Shown piece by piece: positions 10,034-20,388 of a stretch of 64,000 bases of DNA. Position 1 is the stretch's first letter. Every line of letters begins with the position of its first letter. The notes beneath the pieces are model-generated. The model saw only the letters and a program-made list of their open reading frames with translations. It was not told where the DNA came from and ran no database searches. Source of the DNA: Escherichia coli (GTDB taxonomy: Bacteria; Pseudomonadota; Gammaproteobacteria; Enterobacterales; Enterobacteriaceae); NCBI RefSeq assembly GCF_022846255.1, contig NZ_AP025682.1; one strand, written 5' to 3'. The translations under genes were made by a program, and so were the position numbers.

Positions 10034-11431
10034 ATTTTTACCCGAGTCGCTAATTTTTGCCGCAAGGTGCTAAGCCGCGAGGAAAGCGAGGCTGAACAGG
10101 CAGTCGCCCGTCCACAGGTGACGGTGATCCCGCGTGAGCAGCATGCTATTTCCCGCAAAGATATCAGTGAAAATGCCCTGAAGGTAATGTACAGGCTCAA
10201 TAAAGCGGGATACGAAGCCTGGCTGGTTGGCGGCGGCGTGCGCGACCTGTTACTTGGCAAAAAGCCGAAAGATTTTGACGTGACCACCAACGCCACGCCA
10301 GAGCAGGTGCGCAAACTGTTCCGTAATTGCCGCCTGGTGGGTCGCCGTTTCCGTCTGGCTCATGTGATGTTTGGCCCGGAGATTATCGAAGTTGCGACCT
10401 TCCGTGGACATCACGAAGGTAACGTCAGCGACCGCACGACCTCCCAACGCGGGCAAAACGGTATGTTGCTGCGCGACAACATTTTCGGCTCCATCGAAGA
10501 AGACGCCCAGCGCCGCGATTTCACTATCAACAGCCTGTATTACAGCGTGGCAGATTTTACCGTCCGTGATTACGTTGGCGGCATGAAGGATCTGAAAGAC
10601 GGCGTTATCCGTCTGATTGGTAACCCGGAAACGCGCTACCGTGAAGATCCGGTACGGATGCTTCGCGCGGTTCGTTTTGCCGCCAAATTGGGCATGCGCA
10701 TCAGCCCGGAAACCGCCGAGCCGATCCCACGCCTGGCAACCTTACTGAACGATATCCCACCGGCACGTCTGTTTGAAGAATCGCTGAAACTGTTGCAAGC
10801 GGGCTACGGTTACGAAACCTATAAGCTGCTGTGTGAATATCATCTGTTCCAGCCGCTGTTCCCGACCATTACCCGCTACTTCACGGAAAATGGCGACAGC
10901 CCGATGGAGCGGATCATTGAACAGGTGCTGAAGAATACCGATACGCGTATCCATAACGATATGCGCGTGAACCCGGCGTTCCTGTTTGCCGCCATGTTCT
11001 GGTATCCACTGCTGGAGACGGCACAGAAAATTGCTCAGGAGAGCGGCCTGACCTATCACGACGCTTTCGCACTGGCGATGAACGACGTGCTGGACGAAGC
11101 CTGCCGTTCACTGGCGATCCCGAAACGTCTGACTACGTTAACCCGCGATATCTGGCAGTTGCAGTTGCGTATGTCCCGTCGTCAGGGTAAACGCGCATGG
11201 AAACTGCTGGAGCATCCTAAGTTCCGTGCGGCATACGACCTGTTGGCCTTACGAGCCGAAGTTGAGCGTAACGCTGAACTGCAACGTCTGGTGAAATGGT
11301 GGGGTGAGTTCCAGGTTTCCGCGCCGCCAGACCAAAAAGGGATGCTTAACGAACTGGATGAAGAACCGTCACCGCGTCGTCGTACTCGTCGTCCACGCAA
11401 ACGCGCACCGCGTCGTGAGGGTACCGCATGA
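10034..11431 (+). CDS. pcnB: Poly(A) polymerase I
   Basis: ORF track 10013..11431 (TTG); conserved N-terminus (M)[13 protein letters not shown] begins at ATT 10034-10036 with GAGG 6 nt upstream, giving 465 aa; nucleotidyltransferase motif [17 protein letters not shown]; basic C-terminal tail. Confidence 0.85.
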
Positions 11432-11907
11432 CAGTGGCGTATATTGCCATAGGCAGCAATCTGGCCTCTCCGCTGGAGCAGGTCAATGCTGCCCTGAAAG
11501 CATTAGGCGATATTCCAGAAAGCCGCATTCTTGCTGTTTCTTCGTTTTACCGCACCCCACCGCTGGGGCCGCAAGATCAACCCGATTACTTAAATGCCGC
11601 CGTCGCGCTGAAAACCACTCTTGCCCCTGAAGAGCTACTCAATCACACACAGCGTATCGAATTGCAGCAAGGTCGCGTCCGTAAAGCTGAACGCTGGGGA
11701 CCGCGCACGCTGGATCTCGACATCATGCTGTTTGGTAATGAAGTAATAAATACCGAACGTCTGACCGTTCCGCACTACGATATGAAAAATCGCGGCTTTA
11801 TGCTGTGGCCACTGTTTGAAATTGCGCCGGAATTGGTATTTCCTGATGGCTTATCATTAGTTGAAGCTCTACAGGCAAAAGGCTTTAATGAATTAGATAA
11901 GTGGTAA
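11428..11907 (+). CDS. folK: 2-amino-4-hydroxy-6-hydroxymethyldihydropteridine pyrophosphokinase (HPPK)
   Basis: ORF 11428..11907 (159 aa) [31 protein letters not shown]; start overlaps pcnB stop (ATGA). Confidence 0.9.
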
Positions 11908-12269
11908 TTATTATTCGTGTGAATATAAATATATTCCGAAAATAACCATAAACCATTGCAAATAATAATATAATTAATATAAATAAAAACACAGAAAATA
12001 TAATATACCTTCCCGAAATTCTAATTCCATACACCACCCCCTTAATTTTTTAAAGTTAATTTTACTAATTTTCATATTTAGTAAAATTAACTTCCATATG
12101 TCATGGCATTATGCAAAATAGCTGTCCTAATGATGAATGAATGTAATACTTAGTAAAAAACAAACAAACATCATTAACAAAGTAACGTTCAGTTACATGG
12201 CATTGCATCAAAATCTCATCATCATGCAATGCTGTTATCTGCTTTATGGAATATTACTCAAGGATTTTT
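11908..12269. promoter_or_regulatory. Strongly AT-rich leader upstream of the yad fimbrial operon (likely promoter and nucleoid-protein silencing region)
   Basis: ~360 bp of highly AT-rich sequence with A/T tracts between folK stop and yadN start, unlike the surrounding GC-balanced coding DNA. Confidence 0.4.
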
Positions 12270-12860
12270 ATGTCTAAAAAATTAGGTTTTGCGCTGTCCG
12301 GTATTATGTTGGCAATGGCTGCTGGTACTGCATTTGCTGCTAACGATATGGACGGCGGTCAATTAAATATTAGCGGTCTGGTCGTTGATAACACTTGTGA
12401 AGCTCGTGTTGATGGCGGTAACAAAGACGGTCTGATCCTGCTGCAAACCGCTACTGTTGCTGAAATTACTGATGGTGTACTGGATACCACTGTAGGCGCT
12501 AAAGCTAAACCATTCAGCATTACTATTGACTGCAGCAAAGCTAACCCGGCTCCGGGTACTACTGCAAAAATGACCTTCGGTTCTGTTTTCTTTGGTAACA
12601 GCAAAGGAACACTGAACAACGACATGTCTATTAACACCCCGTCTGACGGCGTAAATATCGCTCTGCACAATATTGAAGGTTCTACTATTAAACAGGTTCA
12701 GGTCAATAATCCGGGTGATGTTTACAGCAAAACTCTGGATTCAACGTCTAAATCTGCAACCTACGATTTTAAAGCATCCTATGTTCGTGCGGATGCAAGC
12801 AAAGCAGCTACTGCCGGTTATGTAAAAACCAACTCAGCATACACCATTACTTACCAGTAA
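12270..12860 (+). CDS. yadN: Fimbrial major subunit (chaperone-usher pilin)
   Basis: Within ORF 12246..12860; ATG 12270 preceded by AAGGA; signal peptide [23 protein letters not shown]; pilin-like C-terminus ...[10 protein letters not shown]; first gene of operon. Confidence 0.75.
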
Positions 12861-12968
12861 ATATCAACCACTTAAATTGATCGGGTGAATATATACAGGG
12901 AATAACATCAAATATTTTTACTTTTGATAATTATTCCCTGTTTTAATTAATTCTGTAAGGAATGGTTT

Positions 12969-13709
12969 ATGTTTTTTAATACTAAACATACCGCAGCATT
13001 GTGCTTAGCGAGCTGTATGGCTTTTAGCTCATCAGCTATTGCAGACATCGTAATTTCAGGTACACGCGTAGTTTATAAAAGCGAACAAAAAAGCGTCAAT
13101 GTACGTCTGGAAAATAAAGGCAATAACCCATTGCTGGTTCAGAGTTGGTTAGATACTGGAGATGATAACGCTGAACCAGGCAGTATTACTGTCCCCTTTA
13201 CCGCTACGCCGCCAGTATCACGTATTGATGCTAAACGTGGCCAAACAATCAAACTGATGTACACCGCCAGCAGTGCTCTGCCAAAAGACAGAGAAAGTGT
13301 GTTCTGGTTTAACGTACTGGAAGTACCTCCAAAACCCGATGCAGCAAAAGCAGCAAACCAAAGCCTGCTACAACTGGCATTTCGCACACGTATAAAACTG
13401 TTCTATCGCCCGGAAGGATTGAGTGGAATTTCATCTGATGCACCATTGGCTCTGAAGTGGTCCTGGGCAACATCTGAAGGCAAAGCAGCATTACGCGTTG
13501 ATAACCCTACGCCCTACTATGTCTCTTTTAGCAGTGGTGATTTAGAAGCCAATGGCAAACGCTATCCCCTGGATATGACAATGATTGCGCCGTTCAGTAA
13601 CGACGTCATCAAGGTAAATGGGATGAGTGGCAGAACAAGCTCTGCAAAAGTGCATTTTTTCGCCATTAATGATTTTGGTGGATCTATTGAAGGCAACGCC
13701 AACCTTTAA
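12969..13709 (+). CDS. yadV: Periplasmic fimbrial chaperone (PapD-like)
   Basis: ORF 12969..13709 (246 aa); signal peptide; PapD-family sequence (NPLLVQSWLD..., RESVFWFNV...). Confidence 0.8.
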   Translation: MFFNTKHTAALCLASCMAFSSSAIADIVISGTRVVYKSEQKSVNVRLENKGNNPLLVQSWLDTGDDNAEPGSITVPFTATPPVSRIDAKRGQTIKLMYTASSALPKDRESVFWFNVLEVPPKPDAAKAANQSLLQLAFRTRIKLFYRPEGLSGISSDAPLALKWSWATSEGKAALRVDNPTPYYVSFSSGDLEANGKRYPLDMTMIAPFSNDVIKVNGMSGRTSSAKVHFFAINDFGGSIEGNANL

Positions 13710-13743: not shown

Positions 13744-16332
13744 GTGACTATTAAATCTACTAATCACCTTACCCACATCGCCACGTTTTGCGCTCTGCTG
13801 TATAGCAATAGTGCTTTATGCGCTGAACTCGTCGAATATGACCATACATTTCTGATGGGAAAGGATGCTTCAAATATCGACCTTAGTCGGTATACAGAAG
13901 GCAACCCGACACTACCTGGCATTTACGATGTCAGTGTGTATGTTAACGATCAACCCATCATGAGCCAAAGCATTGCTTTTACTGTTATTGAAGGTAAAAA
14001 GAACGCTCAGGCCTGCATTACGCAGAAAAATTTATTGCAATTTCATATCAGTTCACCAGACAAGAATAGCGAAAAAGCCATTTTGCTTAAGCGAGACGAC
14101 GATCTTGGTGATTGCCTCAATCTGGCTGAAATGATCCCTCAATCATCCATTCGTTACGATGTTAACGATCAACGCCTGGATATCGACGTCCCCCAGGCAT
14201 GGATTATGAAGAATTATCAAAACTATGTTGATCCCTCTTTGTGGGAAAATGGCATTAATGCAGCCATGCTTTCCTACAACCTCAACGGATATCACAGTGA
14301 AAGTCCAGGCAGAACAAATGACAGTATCTACGCGGCATTCAACGGTGGGATAAACTTAGGTGCCTGGCGGTTACGTGCCTCGGGTAACTACAACTGGATG
14401 ACCAATGTCCATAGCGATTACGATTTTCAGAATCGCTATTTACAACGCGATCTTGCGTCACTACGTTCACAACTGGTTATTGGTGAATCTTACACAACCG
14501 GCGAAACCTTCGATTCAGTCAGTATTCGCGGTATTCGTTTATACAGTGACAGTCGAATGCTGCCTCCGGTATTAGCCAGTTTTGCGCCAATCATTCATGG
14601 CGTAGCGAATACCAATGCCAAAGTAACCGTTATGCAAAATGGTTATAAGATCTATGAAACGACGGTGCCGCCAGGAGCTTTTACCATTGACGATCTTAGC
14701 CCATCAGGTTATGGCAGCGATCTCATTGTGACTATCGAAGAAGCTGATGGCACAAAACGGACGTTCTCCCAGCCATTTTCATCTGTTGTGCAAATGCTGC
14801 GCCCTGGCGTTGGTCGCTGGGATATTAGCGCCGGTCAGGTTTTAAAAGACAGTATCCAGGATGAGCCTAATTTATTTCAAGCCAGCTACTACTATGGTTT
14901 GAATAACTACCTGACAGGATATACCGGTATTCAGCTAACTGATAATAACTATACCGCCGGATTGCTGGGGCTTGGTATGAATACCCCCGTGGGGGCTTTT
15001 TCTGTCGATGTTACTCACTCAAATGTCAGCATTCCGGATGATAAAACCTATCAAGGACAAAGCTACCGTATTTCCTGGAACAAGTTATTTGAAAATACCA
15101 GTACATCATTAAATATCGCGGCCTATCGCTACTCCACCCAGCATTATCTGGGCCTCAATGATGCGCTGACGCTGATTGATGAAGTAGAACATCCTGAGCA
15201 AGATCTTGAGCCTAAATCCATGCGCAATTACTCGCGCATGAAAAATCAGGTCACGGTCAGTATCAACCAACCGCTGAAATTTGAGAAAAAGGATTACGGT
15301 TCATTTTATCTCTCGGGAAGCTGGTCAGATTACTGGGCCTCCGGGCAAAACAGTACTAATTACTCTATTGGTTATAGCAATAGTGCGTCCTGGGGCAGTT
15401 ACAGTATCAGTGCTCAACGTTCGTTGAATGAAGATGGTCAAACCGACGATAGCATTTATCTCAGCTTCACGATTCCAATAGAAAATTTACTGGGTACGGA
15501 ACACCGCAGCTCCGGCTTCCAGAGTATTGATACACAATTAAACAGCGACTTTAAGGGTAATAACCAACTCAATATCAGCAGTAGTGGTTACAGCGATACC
15601 AATCGTATCAGCTACAGCGTAAACACGGGTTATATGATGAATAAATCCAGTGATGACCTGAGTTATATCGGCGGTTATGCCAGTTATGAATCGCCGTGGG
15701 GAACGCTGTCAGGTTCAGCCTCAGCAAGCAGTGATAATAGTCGCCAATTCTCACTCAATACTGATGGTGGATTTGTGTTACATAGCGGCGGGCTGACGTT
15801 CAGTAATGACAGTTTTAGTGATTCCGACGCTCTGGCTGTCATTCAGGCGCCAGGAGCAAAAGGCGCTCGTATTAACTACGGAAACAGCACCGTAGACCGC
15901 TGGGGTTATGGTGTGACCAGCGCCCTTTCGCCATACCATGAAAACCGTATCGCACTGGACATTAACGATCTGGAAAACGATGTTGAATTGAAAAGCACCA
16001 GTACTGTCGCCGTCCCGCGCCAGGGAGCCGTCGTCTTTGCTGATTTTGAAACAGTTCAGGGACAATCGGCAATTATGAATATCGTGCGAAGCGATGGTAA
16101 AAATATTCCATTTGCAGCGGATATTTATGATGAACAAAACAATATCATCGGCAACGTAGGTCAGGGTGGTCAGGCCTTTGTTCGCGGTATCGGGCAGGAA
16201 GGAAATATACGAATTACCTGGATTGAAGAGGGCAAACCAGTCAGTTGTTTTGCTCATTACCAACAAAACACGACATCAGAAAAAATAGCACAATCTATTA
16301 TTCTTAACGGGCTTCGTTGTCAGATACAGTAA
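13744..16332 (+). CDS. htrE: Fimbrial outer-membrane usher
   Basis: ORF 13744..16332 (862 aa, GTG start); usher-family sequence with C-terminal ...LNGLRCQIQ; positioned after the chaperone gene. Confidence 0.85.
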   Translation: MTIKSTNHLTHIATFCALLYSNSALCAELVEYDHTFLMGKDASNIDLSRYTEGNPTLPGIYDVSVYVNDQPIMSQSIAFTVIEGKKNAQACITQKNLLQFHISSPDKNSEKAILLKRDDDLGDCLNLAEMIPQSSIRYDVNDQRLDIDVPQAWIMKNYQNYVDPSLWENGINAAMLSYNLNGYHSESPGRTNDSIYAAFNGGINLGAWRLRASGNYNWMTNVHSDYDFQNRYLQRDLASLRSQLVIGESYTTGETFDSVSIRGIRLYSDSRMLPPVLASFAPIIHGVANTNAKVTVMQNGYKIYETTVPPGAFTIDDLSPSGYGSDLIVTIEEADGTKRTFSQPFSSVVQMLRPGVGRWDISAGQVLKDSIQDEPNLFQASYYYGLNNYLTGYTGIQLTDNNYTAGLLGLGMNTPVGAFSVDVTHSNVSIPDDKTYQGQSYRISWNKLFENTSTSLNIAAYRYSTQHYLGLNDALTLIDEVEHPEQDLEPKSMRNYSRMKNQVTVSINQPLKFEKKDYGSFYLSGSWSDYWASGQNSTNYSIGYSNSASWGSYSISAQRSLNEDGQTDDSIYLSFTIPIENLLGTEHRSSGFQSIDTQLNSDFKGNNQLNISSSGYSDTNRISYSVNTGYMMNKSSDDLSYIGGYASYESPWGTLSGSASASSDNSRQFSLNTDGGFVLHSGGLTFSNDSFSDSDALAVIQAPGAKGARINYGNSTVDRWGYGVTSALSPYHENRIALDINDLENDVELKSTSTVAVPRQGAVVFADFETVQGQSAIMNIVRSDGKNIPFAADIYDEQNNIIGNVGQGGQAFVRGIGQEGNIRITWIEEGKPVSCFAHYQQNTTSEKIAQSIILNGLRCQIQ

Positions 16333-18208: not shown

Positions 18209-19471
18209 ATGAAGACATTCTTCAGATACTTTCTTTTTTTAGCACTATGCTCTTGTTGTTATACAGCAAGCGCCGGCATCGATGATCACGTCGGCTATAT
18301 TGTTGGGAATGATTACGGTGTTGGGCCTGGAGACCAAAAATGGCGTGAGGCAGGTCCCAATGGAGATGTTACCGTCAAATTCCGGTATGGATCAGGCACC
18401 AATAATTTAGTTTTTTATAAACCAACCCAACTTGGCCCAACCGGGGTGTCATTAAAATGGGAGCAGTTAGATTCCGCTTCGGGTAGAGGTTTCCTTTACT
18501 GTAACAGAAGTAGTAACTCAAGTGGCGAACCAATGTCTATTGAACATAAAATGGTTGATTCCGGTAAAAGTTATGGCGGACATAAACTCTTTGAGACATC
18601 TGTTCCAGGTCTGTATTATACATTGGCAATATCAAACATTTGGTCAGCATATACATCTACCAATATCAACTCATCAGGCATATATATTGGCGATTCTACG
18701 GACCAAACTTTTTACTGGCGTGGCGAAAGTGAGCAAACCCTATATCGGTCTTGCAACAATGCAAATACAAAAAATAAATATTGGGCCGTTGGTGGCGTTA
18801 TGCAAACGCTCACGATTGAATTTTATACCGATACCAACTTTAACCCGACAACGAATCAACGGGTAACATTGTCCAAAACAGATGGTTACCTCTACTCATT
18901 CAAAGCATATGGTGCTGGCGTTGGTATCAAGAGTTATTTTCTTAAAATCGACTTTGACCTGACAGATATCGTATTAACCAACCCCACCTGCTTTACTGCT
19001 GTACTTACCGGAAAATCAGTAAGTGGTTCGACGGTAAAAATGGGAGAATATGCACCAGGACAGATAAAAAATGGCGCGACTCCGGTTCCTTTTGATATTT
19101 CTCTCAAAAACTGTGTTCGCGTTGGCGATATAGAGACAAAGCTATCTTCAGGGAAGTTAGGTACAGAAAACAAGCAACTCCTGGGTAACACACTCACTGG
19201 AAGCGACACAGCAAAAGGCGTTGGGGTATTGATTGAAGGATTAGAAAACAGTAAAAGTGCCTTAATGATACTGAAACCTAATGATCCAAGTTCTGTTTAT
19301 AAAGATAATACGGGTCAGACTCAGGATAACGATTCAGATGCGATTTACCCGGAAGCTGACGGTATAACTTATCCACTTCATTTCCAGGCTACATTAAAAC
19401 AAGACGGTAATATTGCTATAGAACCGGGGGATTTTAAAGCCACCAGCACTTTTCAGGTTACCTACCCCTGA
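18209..19471 (+). CDS. yadC: Fimbrial tip adhesin-like subunit
   Basis: Within ORF 18167..19471; ATG 18209 after GGAG; signal peptide [22 protein letters not shown]; two-domain size (420 aa) with pilin-like C-terminus ...TSTFQVTYP. Confidence 0.7.
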
Positions 19472-19582
19472 TAACACTATTGCACCGCCAGACAATGGCG
19501 GTGCGATACGGATAAATCATTGCCCCCACCAATGTGACTGATAAAATGCGAGACAGCACAACATCATTTATCAGGATACGCT

Positions 19583-20377
19583 ATGAAACCAACCACGATT
19601 GCTTCATTGCAGAAATGCAAGCAGGACAAAAAACGTTTCGCAACCATCACCGCTTACGACTATAGCTTCGCAAAACTGTTTGCCGAAGAAGGACTTAACG
19701 TCATGCTGGTAGGCGACTCACTGGGCATGACGGTTCAGGGGCATGACTCCACGCTACCGGTTACCGTTGCCGATATCGCCTATCACACCGCCGCTGTGCG
19801 TCGCGGCGCGCCAAACTGCCTTCTGCTGGCTGACCTGCCATTTATGGCGTATGCCACGCCGGAACAAGCCTTTGAAAACGCCGCAACGGTAATGCGTGCC
19901 GGAGCCAACATGGTCAAAATTGAAGGAGGTGAGTGGCTGGTGGACACCGTACAAATGCTGACCGAACGTGCCGTTCCAGTTTGTGGTCATTTAGGCCTAA
20001 CCCCACAGTCAGTGAATATTTTCGGTGGCTACAAAGTCCAGGGGCGCGGCGATGAAGCGGGCGATCGACTGCTCAGCGATGCATTAGCCTTAGAAGCTGC
20101 TGGGGCACAACTGCTGGTACTGGAGTGCGTGCCGGTTGAACTGGCAAAACGCATTACCGAAGCACTGGCGATCCCGGTTATCGGTATTGGCGCAGGCAAC
20201 GTCACTGACGGGCAAATTCTCGTGATGCACGACGCGTTCGGCATTACCGGCGGTCATATTCCTAAATTCGCCAAAAACTTCCTCGCCGAAACGGGCGACA
20301 TCCGCGCGGCTGTGCGGCAGTATATGGCTGAAGTGGAGTCCGGCGTTTACCCGGGCGAAGAACACAGTTTCCATTAA
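19583..20377 (+). CDS. panB: 3-methyl-2-oxobutanoate hydroxymethyltransferase
   Basis: ORF 19583..20377 (264 aa) [33 protein letters not shown]. Confidence 0.93.
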
Positions 20378-20388
20378 GGAGTGACGTT

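Follow-up and report, generated by a model that had tools for sequence, protein, structure and literature searches.

The locus examined here raises the question of what function, if any, resides in the AT-rich DNA between the housekeeping gene folK and the fimbrial gene yadN in a 64-kb stretch of Escherichia coli DNA (64,000 nucleotides, referred to here as the window). An earlier note, made from the sequence alone, had described this DNA as a leader with the marks of H-NS nucleation sites and of a phase- or regulator-controlled fimbrial promoter. In our assessment, the spacer is, with a probability of roughly 90%, an AT-rich promoter region through which H-NS silences the yad operon, with the active promoter lying within 12041-12245 and with specific factors probably acting at a few conserved sites.

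The region coincides exactly with the folK-yadN spacer (362 bp): the folK stop codon TAA ends at 11907, and the yadN ATG lies at 12270. On the plus strand, gluQ, pcnB, and folK are followed by the fimbrial operon, with the same orientation throughout. Pfam models place HPPK at 11428-11907, upstream of the spacer, and, downstream of it, a Fimbrial-family subunit (12270-12860), a PapD-type chaperone (12969-13709), and an usher (13744-16332). The usher is followed by three minor-subunit ORFs, a 434-aa ORF, and two ORFs with the size and placement of panB and panC; these six were named on the assumption that the gene order of K-12 holds here. The features discussed below are collected in Table 1.

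Table 1. Features in and around the folK-yadN spacer, in window coordinates (strand given where one was assigned)
Feature	Position	Strand	Description
folK 3' end	11850..11907	+	Last 58 nt including stop; in hyper-divergent block; change point at 11850, identity to K-12 falling from 94% to ~55%
folK-yadN intergenic region	11908..12269	+	Probable AT-rich regulatory region of the yad operon; lowest G+C of 362-bp stretches; 97% identity to CFT073
Invariant 11-mer	11921..11931		GAATATAAATA; 12/12 alleles, three classes; outside reporter fragment
Pure A/T stretch	11960..11989		30 nt; most extreme part of the AT-rich tract
Pyad reporter counterpart	12041..12245	+	Predicted to contain the H-NS-repressible promoter; exact primer matches; 3 differences from CFT073
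Dyad element	12053..12093		AAGTTAATTTTACTAA, 9 nt, TTAGTAAAATTAACTT; perfect 16-nt arms, 12053-12068 and 12078-12093
Candidate -10 (P1)	12114..12119	+	CAAAAT; relaxed scan; predicted start near 12126
Conserved block	12142..12157	+	TGTAATACTTAGTAAA; putative extended -10 (TG-n-AATACT, P2) or CpxR-like repeat GTAAT-N5-GTAAA
12-bp hairpin	12197..12235	+	AUGGCAUUGCAU, 15 nt, AUGCAAUGCUGU; specific to B2-type alleles, not conserved in the other classes
Translation-initiation region, conserved	12246..12272	+	ATGGAAT block, Shine-Dalgarno AAGGA (12260-12264), yadN ATG (12270); invariant runs 12246-12252 and 12260-12266

The G+C content of the spacer is 25.7%, versus 51.0% for the window, making it the most AT-rich stretch of such length. 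Only 0.06% of all 362-bp windows have a G+C content as low, and the spacer forms the sole cluster below 30%. It thus has the composition of xenogeneic-type DNA, that is, a G+C content markedly below that of the host over at least 100 bp. The upstream 133 bp (11908-12040), which lie outside the reporter fragment described below, are the most AT-rich part. There are 11 A or T homopolymers of at least 4 nt in the spacer, and TpA steps make up 12.7% of its dinucleotides compared with 4.6% in the window. On composition, therefore, the earlier note was right: the DNA between folK and yadN is very AT rich and carries multiple A/T tracts, including one pure A/T stretch of 30 nt. The short direct repeats that it also pointed out are present as quoted (TAATATAAATA at 11975 and AATATAATATA at 11997) but do not rise above chance; the longest exact repeat, 10 nt, is reached by 35% of dinucleotide-preserving shuffles, and we rejected direct repeats as a real feature. 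For curvature, which the note had proposed to compute, an AA/TT periodogram (a crude test) gave no 10- to 11-bp phasing in the spacer, with 66% of shuffles equaling the observed maximum, and hence no support for strong intrinsic curvature.

Nor does the spacer appear to encode a peptide. ORFs of at least 30 codons are missing from the K-12-type alleles (the allele classes are defined below), and a 46-codon ORF at 12137-12277 is kept in B2-type alleles only, with non-conservative changes. A small ORF or leader peptide was rejected for this lack of conservation across alleles, and the claim that no ORF of convincing quality is present therefore stands. The label of "leader" for the 362 bp, in turn, is not supported.

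The evidence that carries our reading comes from published work on nearly identical DNA. Ellison et al. (PLoS Pathog 2026; PMC13245861) cloned the ∼200 bp preceding yadN in CFT073 as a lux fusion. The Pyad-lux primers given in their supplement match the window exactly at 12041-12065 (plus strand) and 12220-12245 (minus strand), which identifies the CFT073 reporter fragment with window positions 12041-12245 (205 bp). Three bases in this fragment differ from CFT073 (12091, 12094, and 12128); the spacer as a whole is 97.0% identical to that of CFT073, and its last 141 bp are without any difference. In the source data for Fig. 3A of that study, Pyad-lux yielded 182 to 238 RLU/OD in the wild type (empty vector, ∼24 to 46) and 18,954 to 20,386 RLU/OD in the CFT073 hns mutant, a derepression of ∼100-fold, and supplying hns in trans brought the signal back to 229 to 370 RLU/OD (PMC13245861). 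The same authors report that mutation of hns upregulates every yad gene in CFT073 as well as in EC958 (measured for EC958 by qRT-PCR), that serum induces Pyad and does so even in the hns mutant, and that published CFT073 ChIP-seq data show H-NS binding of the yad region (PMC13245861); the main text of the ChIP-seq source paper does not mention yad.

The K-12 counterpart has been described independently. The K-12 folK-yadN spacer is one of 78 "promoter islands" (156927_379; Panyukov and Ozoline 2013, PMC3661553), defined by a density of at least 8 PlatProm-predicted start points per 100 bp, sustained for 300 bp or more, and by little full-length transcript (PMC3661553). It is bound by H-NS "according to all studies," i.e., the three ChIP-chip data sets of Grainger, Kahramanoglou, and Oshima (PMC3661553; PMC5797941), and overproduction of SlyA, an H-NS antagonist, raises K-12 yadN expression 2.4-fold (PMC5797941). 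In addition, a pangenome GWAS preprint finds that natural variants upstream of yadN change expression consistently in all three of the methods that it compares, namely GWAS, a promoter calculator, and a reporter fusion (10.1101/2025.06.10.658842). A Reg-Seq preprint includes yadN among its targets but gives no yadN result.

Taken with the sequence identity to CFT073, these published data show that H-NS should occupy the region and hold a promoter within 12041-12245 ∼100-fold repressed, and that the CFT073 reporter result can be expected to transfer to the window strain. The comparison with H-NS ChIP data that the earlier note had suggested thus comes out in its favor, the K-12 allele being bound in all data sets and the CFT073 yad region being bound as well; a spacer free of H-NS with constitutive yadN transcription, which the note had named as the contrary outcome, is contradicted by the data on near-identical DNA (CFT073, 97.0%). 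What the note had called an H-NS nucleation site is accordingly an H-NS target in CFT073 and K-12, but a discrete nucleation site is not supported: the high-affinity motif TCGATAAATT has no match of at least 8/10 in the spacer. This motif, taken as cited in PMC3661553, is an auxiliary and non-obligatory feature, as are phased A-tracts.

To place the spacer among its relatives, we aligned 12 folK-yadN spacers, which fall into three collinear allele classes. The B2-type class (the window, CFT073, UTI89, and others) is 82 to 97% identical to the window, the K-12-type class (K-12, EC10, and CX05) is 57% identical, and class 3 (E2386, A42, and FDA1279) is ∼51% identical. The three classes are deeply diverged (∼50 to 60% identity) and all AT rich, with G+C contents of 25 to 32%. 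The check primer used for EC958 matches class 3, and H-NS repression has been reported for representatives of all three classes. Since alleles only ∼50 to 60% identical are all reported to be repressed, silencing appears to follow base composition rather than specific sequence.

The spacer was matched in 480 to 560 of 5,426 complete E. coli genomes (best match, 97.8%), and the matches listed include the B2 strains Nissle 1917, ATCC 25922, UTI89, and E2348/69; the flanking housekeeping genes reach up to 99.5% identity to E. coli genomes. A scan of genome contigs with the conserved ribosome-binding site and start-of-yadN pattern matched a single E. coli contig, and so no cross-species footprint was possible. 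Compared with K-12, identity is 96% in pcnB, 94% in nucleotides 1 to 422 of folK, 55 to 61% in the last 58 nt of folK, 57 to 60% in the spacer, 83% in yadN and in yadV, and 74% at the 5' end of htrE. According to this profile, divergence within the locus is greatest in the promoter block, whose left edge lies inside folK. Just 29% of spacer columns are invariant across the 12 alleles, and these are clustered in GAATATAAATA at 11921-11931, CATAC at 12028-12032, ATGGAAT at 12246-12252, and AAGGATT at 12260-12266, the last being the Shine-Dalgarno block.

The last 17 FolK residues differ between yad allele classes (the K-12 version is GEMLRQILHTRAFDKLNKW), and in genomes without the yad type of the window, folK matches end at ∼11849. 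In one genome (NZ_CP103694.1; positions 1709-2868 of locus L009), IS1 and a fimbrial adhesin gene remnant replace the whole yad operon between folK and panB, showing that IS-mediated deletion can remove the locus. In O157:H7 86-24 (positions 1712-1991 of locus L010), another fimbrial major-subunit gene follows folK after an unrelated but equally AT-rich 280-bp spacer of 27.9% G+C, and folK has one extra codon and a TAG stop.

The extreme divergence also bears on the proposal that the spacer is a non-functional AT-rich junction bordering a horizontally acquired fimbrial island and that read-through from pcnB-folK accounts for yad transcription. The block is indeed the most diverged in the locus, all of the genes lie on the same strand, and no intrinsic terminator is predicted after folK; the dyad hairpin, which we considered for that role, was rejected because it has no U-tract in the B2-type alleles. 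Yet the isolated 205-bp CFT073 fragment drives lux from a plasmid, strongly so when hns is mutated, and the spacer has kept invariant blocks while being near saturation elsewhere. We regard a functionless junction as highly improbable and as already contradicted by the reporter data.

Many chaperone-usher operons are controlled by phase switches, either by fim-type inversion or by pap-type Dam/Lrp methylation, and the use of such switches by so many related operons would favor a phase-variable promoter at yad, as would imperfect inverted repeats that flank parts of the spacer (e.g., 12043-12059 and 12268-12284, 82%). A fim-type switch comprises inverted repeats bounding a ∼300-bp segment together with tyrosine recombinase genes, and this arrangement was not found at the locus. 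The two GATC sites in Lrp sites and the papI/papB-like genes of a pap-type switch are likewise missing: there are zero GATC sites in 11908-12269, no regulator ORFs, and no recombinase or papI/papB-like gene adjoining, the neighbors being folK and yadN. Furthermore, the one inverted repeat of significance has just 9 bp between its arms, all of the 480 matching genomes match at least 80% of the spacer in a single place, each of the matches listed is a single collinear piece with no inverted orientation seen, and Yad fimbriae are stated to be non-phase-variable (PMC13245861). A phase switch is thus largely refuted and, in our view, scarcely credible; of the "phase- or regulator-controlled fimbrial promoter" that had been proposed, the phase-variable half falls away, and control by H-NS remains.

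If the spacer is an H-NS-silenced promoter region, then its core promoter is not of the consensus type. No sigma-70 site scoring at least 9/12 was found on either strand of the spacer, versus 3.9 ± 2.2 in shuffles, and a consensus sigma-70 promoter was rejected on this count. A relaxed scan returned many weak candidates; our comparison of the window allele with the promoter islands was made with these two scans. A weight matrix of our own making, built with an AT-rich background, was distrusted, as it over-rewarded G/C. Among the weak sigma-70-like -10 elements, P1 is the only one that occupies the same alignment column in all allele classes, where its counterparts are CACAAT in K-12 and either CACAAT or TACATT in class 3; a -35-like hexamer lies 16 to 17 bp upstream. 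Of the three positions in the reporter fragment that differ from CFT073, two (12091 and 12094) lie within the candidate -35 of P1. We infer that the yad promoter is weak or non-canonical, with P1 as the best positional candidate, from which the 5' UTR would be ∼144 nt long.

A second candidate is the conserved block at 12142-12157, whose pattern across alleles is TGT.A.....GTAA. In CpxR-regulated promoters, phosphorylated CpxR binds a direct repeat, GTAAA-N5-GTAAA, near the promoter; this consensus is matched 9/10 at 12143-12157, and four divergent alleles keep a 9/10 match at the aligned position while the N5 varies. For a single sequence, such a box is unexceptional (P = 0.11; 6 matches in the window versus 3.4 expected), and no link between Cpx and yad was found in the literature. 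In a scan with consensus sequences for 13 factors (ArcA, Fur, SlyA, Lrp, IHF, CRP, RcsAB, OmpR, PhoP, FNR, Fis, MarA, and CpxR), all spacer matches were at the level of chance in AT-rich DNA, bar the positional conservation of the CpxR-like box. The block as an extended -10 or a CpxR-like site is offered as a lead only.

A long 5' UTR raises the alternative that yadN is controlled after initiation by a structured cis-regulatory RNA leader or small RNA, such as a riboswitch, thermosensor, or attenuator. The UTR may be long (∼110 to 145 nt), B2-type alleles carry the 12-bp hairpin listed in Table 1, transcription through the dyad would give a strong AU-rich hairpin, and temperature-dependent yad expression is reported in the literature. 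Against this, no Rfam match had an E value below 0.4 (the best hits, to eukaryotic or unrelated families, reached 11 to 23 bits versus cutoffs of 35 to 100), the folding energy of the leader is ordinary (z = -1.0), and, apart from 4 invariant pairs at the ribosome-binding site, the three classes share neither a consensus structure nor covariation. Neither an intrinsic terminator nor an RfaH ops element was found in the leader. Control of yadN by such an RNA is, we believe, very unlikely.

Two elements elsewhere in the window were recorded in their own right. The yadN-yadV spacer (12861-12968, ∼31% G+C) contains an 11-bp stem (CAGGGAAUAAC/UUAUUCCCUG) plus an inner stem, followed by UUUU; this hairpin (12895-12941, z = -2.6) was missed by a simple terminator scan owing to its long loop, and it resembles the attenuator-type stem-loop found downstream of the major subunit gene in other chaperone-usher operons. 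On the minus strand, 37829-37839 exactly matches (GGCGGTAGTTT) the RfaH ops consensus GGCGGTAGNNT, in a divergent intergenic region preceding a long ORF of that strand (34961-37711), which we take, from its position, to be acnB. With ∼0.5 exact ops matches expected by chance in the window, this match is probably fortuitous.

The spacer also holds a perfect dyad with 16-nt arms, which the earlier note had missed. An inverted repeat of this length occurred in 1 of 1,000 shuffles. The dyad is kept in the B2-type and K-12-type alleles, where 93% of cells are paired, compared with 22 to 55% when the partner is slid by 1 to 3 columns. Three of its 16 pairs have changed on both arms, with a covariation score above that of 498 of 500 shuffles, a result based on just 7 distinct, related sequences. 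In the class-3 alleles, the dyad is reduced to the inner ACTTAA/TTAAGT core. As RNA, it would fold with -16.5 kcal/mol (z = -6.7). Template-switch mutation can "correct" quasi-palindromes without selection, and the symmetry may reflect either such correction or selection on a dimeric protein site, a cruciform, or a hairpin.

The window itself differs from CFT073 and UTI89 at 12091 and 12094, where it has C/C in place of A/G; the dyad is paired 16/16 here versus 15/16 in those strains, and the candidate -35 TTGCAT of CFT073 and UTI89 becomes TTCCAT. The C/C state also occurs in the B2-type allele of DETEC-E1070 and is therefore a shared natural polymorphism. It might alter yad expression.

As an addition to the silencing by H-NS, the dyad could be the operator of a dimeric regulator, possibly the serum-responsive factor, acting on top of H-NS. 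Such a protein could be an anti-silencer or a repressor, for instance, of the SlyA/MarR, LysR, or response-regulator type. The rarity of a perfect 16-nt dyad in shuffles and the survival of its symmetry through the both-arm changes across alleles are consistent with this idea. So is its location within the serum-responsive reporter fragment, just upstream of and overlapping the candidate -35, and a regulator of such a kind has been hypothesized (PMC13245861). Several points weigh against it: class-3 alleles retain the inner core only, the ArcA, Fur, Lrp, and SlyA consensuses match the dyad no better than chance (P = 0.3 to 1.0), template switching offers a route to symmetry without selection, and the covariation derives from few and related sequences. 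We put the operator forward tentatively, as possible but less than even in its chances.

The invariant 11-mer is a further candidate. GAATATAAATA forms part of the near-palindrome GAATATA-AA-TATATTC and is the longest invariant run in the spacer; a run of 11 arose in 0 of 5,000 permutations of the invariant columns. A bolder proposal joins these elements to the divergence of the locus: the spacer would represent at least three ancient alleles (∼50 to 60% identity), more diverged than the fimbrial genes that they control and with a recombination boundary in the 3' end of folK, an essential gene, in which the dyad and the 11-mer would be operators of a serum regulator that overrides H-NS. As a whole, we hold this to be doubtful. 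If it were true, allele differences such as the single-nucleotide polymorphisms at 12091/12094, which perfect the dyad and weaken the candidate -35, would tune Yad expression between lineages.

Returning to H-NS silencing as the preferred explanation, we propose that the spacer would act both as promoter and regulatory DNA for the yadN-yadV-htrE-yadMLKC chaperone-usher fimbrial operon and as a xenogeneic-type, AT-rich H-NS target. H-NS bound to it would keep the promoter in 12041-12245 ∼100-fold down, and removal of H-NS, or host cues such as serum, would raise yad transcription. The 11-mer, the dyad, and the 12142-12157 block may be sites for specific factors or core promoter elements, working with or against H-NS. 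The practical value of these assignments is modest. The folK-yadN spacer sets the expression of Yad fimbriae, which play a part when extraintestinal E. coli infects the bladder, the bloodstream, or birds (PMC13245861), and the dyad, the 11-mer, the conserved -10, and the TGT-GTAAA block provide concrete targets in the search for the serum-responsive regulator and the transcription start.

Among known systems, the fimS switch and the pap Dam/Lrp switch resemble this locus in having AT-rich regulatory DNA upstream of a chaperone-usher major subunit gene, and H-NS is also involved at both. The window spacer differs from them in that it has no repeats bounding an invertible segment, no recombinase genes, no GATC pair, and no orientation polymorphism seen. 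K-12 promoter island 156927_379 occupies the same position between folK and yadN and is similar in length (369 versus 362 bp) and G+C content (26.6%) but has only 57 to 60% identity to the window spacer; with the simple sigma-70 scan, the K-12 allele gave antisense matches only and the window allele gave 0. Cryptic, H-NS-silenced chaperone-usher operons of K-12 are attributed to Korea et al. 2010 and Larsonneur et al. 2016, as cited in PMC13245861 and PMC5797941. The closest counterpart is CFT073 Pyad, with the same locus, allele class, and 97.0% spacer identity; the differences are three single-nucleotide polymorphisms in the 205-bp fragment and the strain, the window being from another B2-like E. 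coli. CFT073 Pyad is H-NS repressed, serum induced, and not phase variable (Ellison et al., PMC13245861). Silencing of the AT-rich yad promoter by H-NS is thus already known, is typical of cryptic chaperone-usher operons, and is nothing new in kind; what is new, if minor, is the existence of three diverged alleles, their shared invariant 11-mer, the compensated dyad, the positionally conserved weak -10, and a divergent block that begins within folK.
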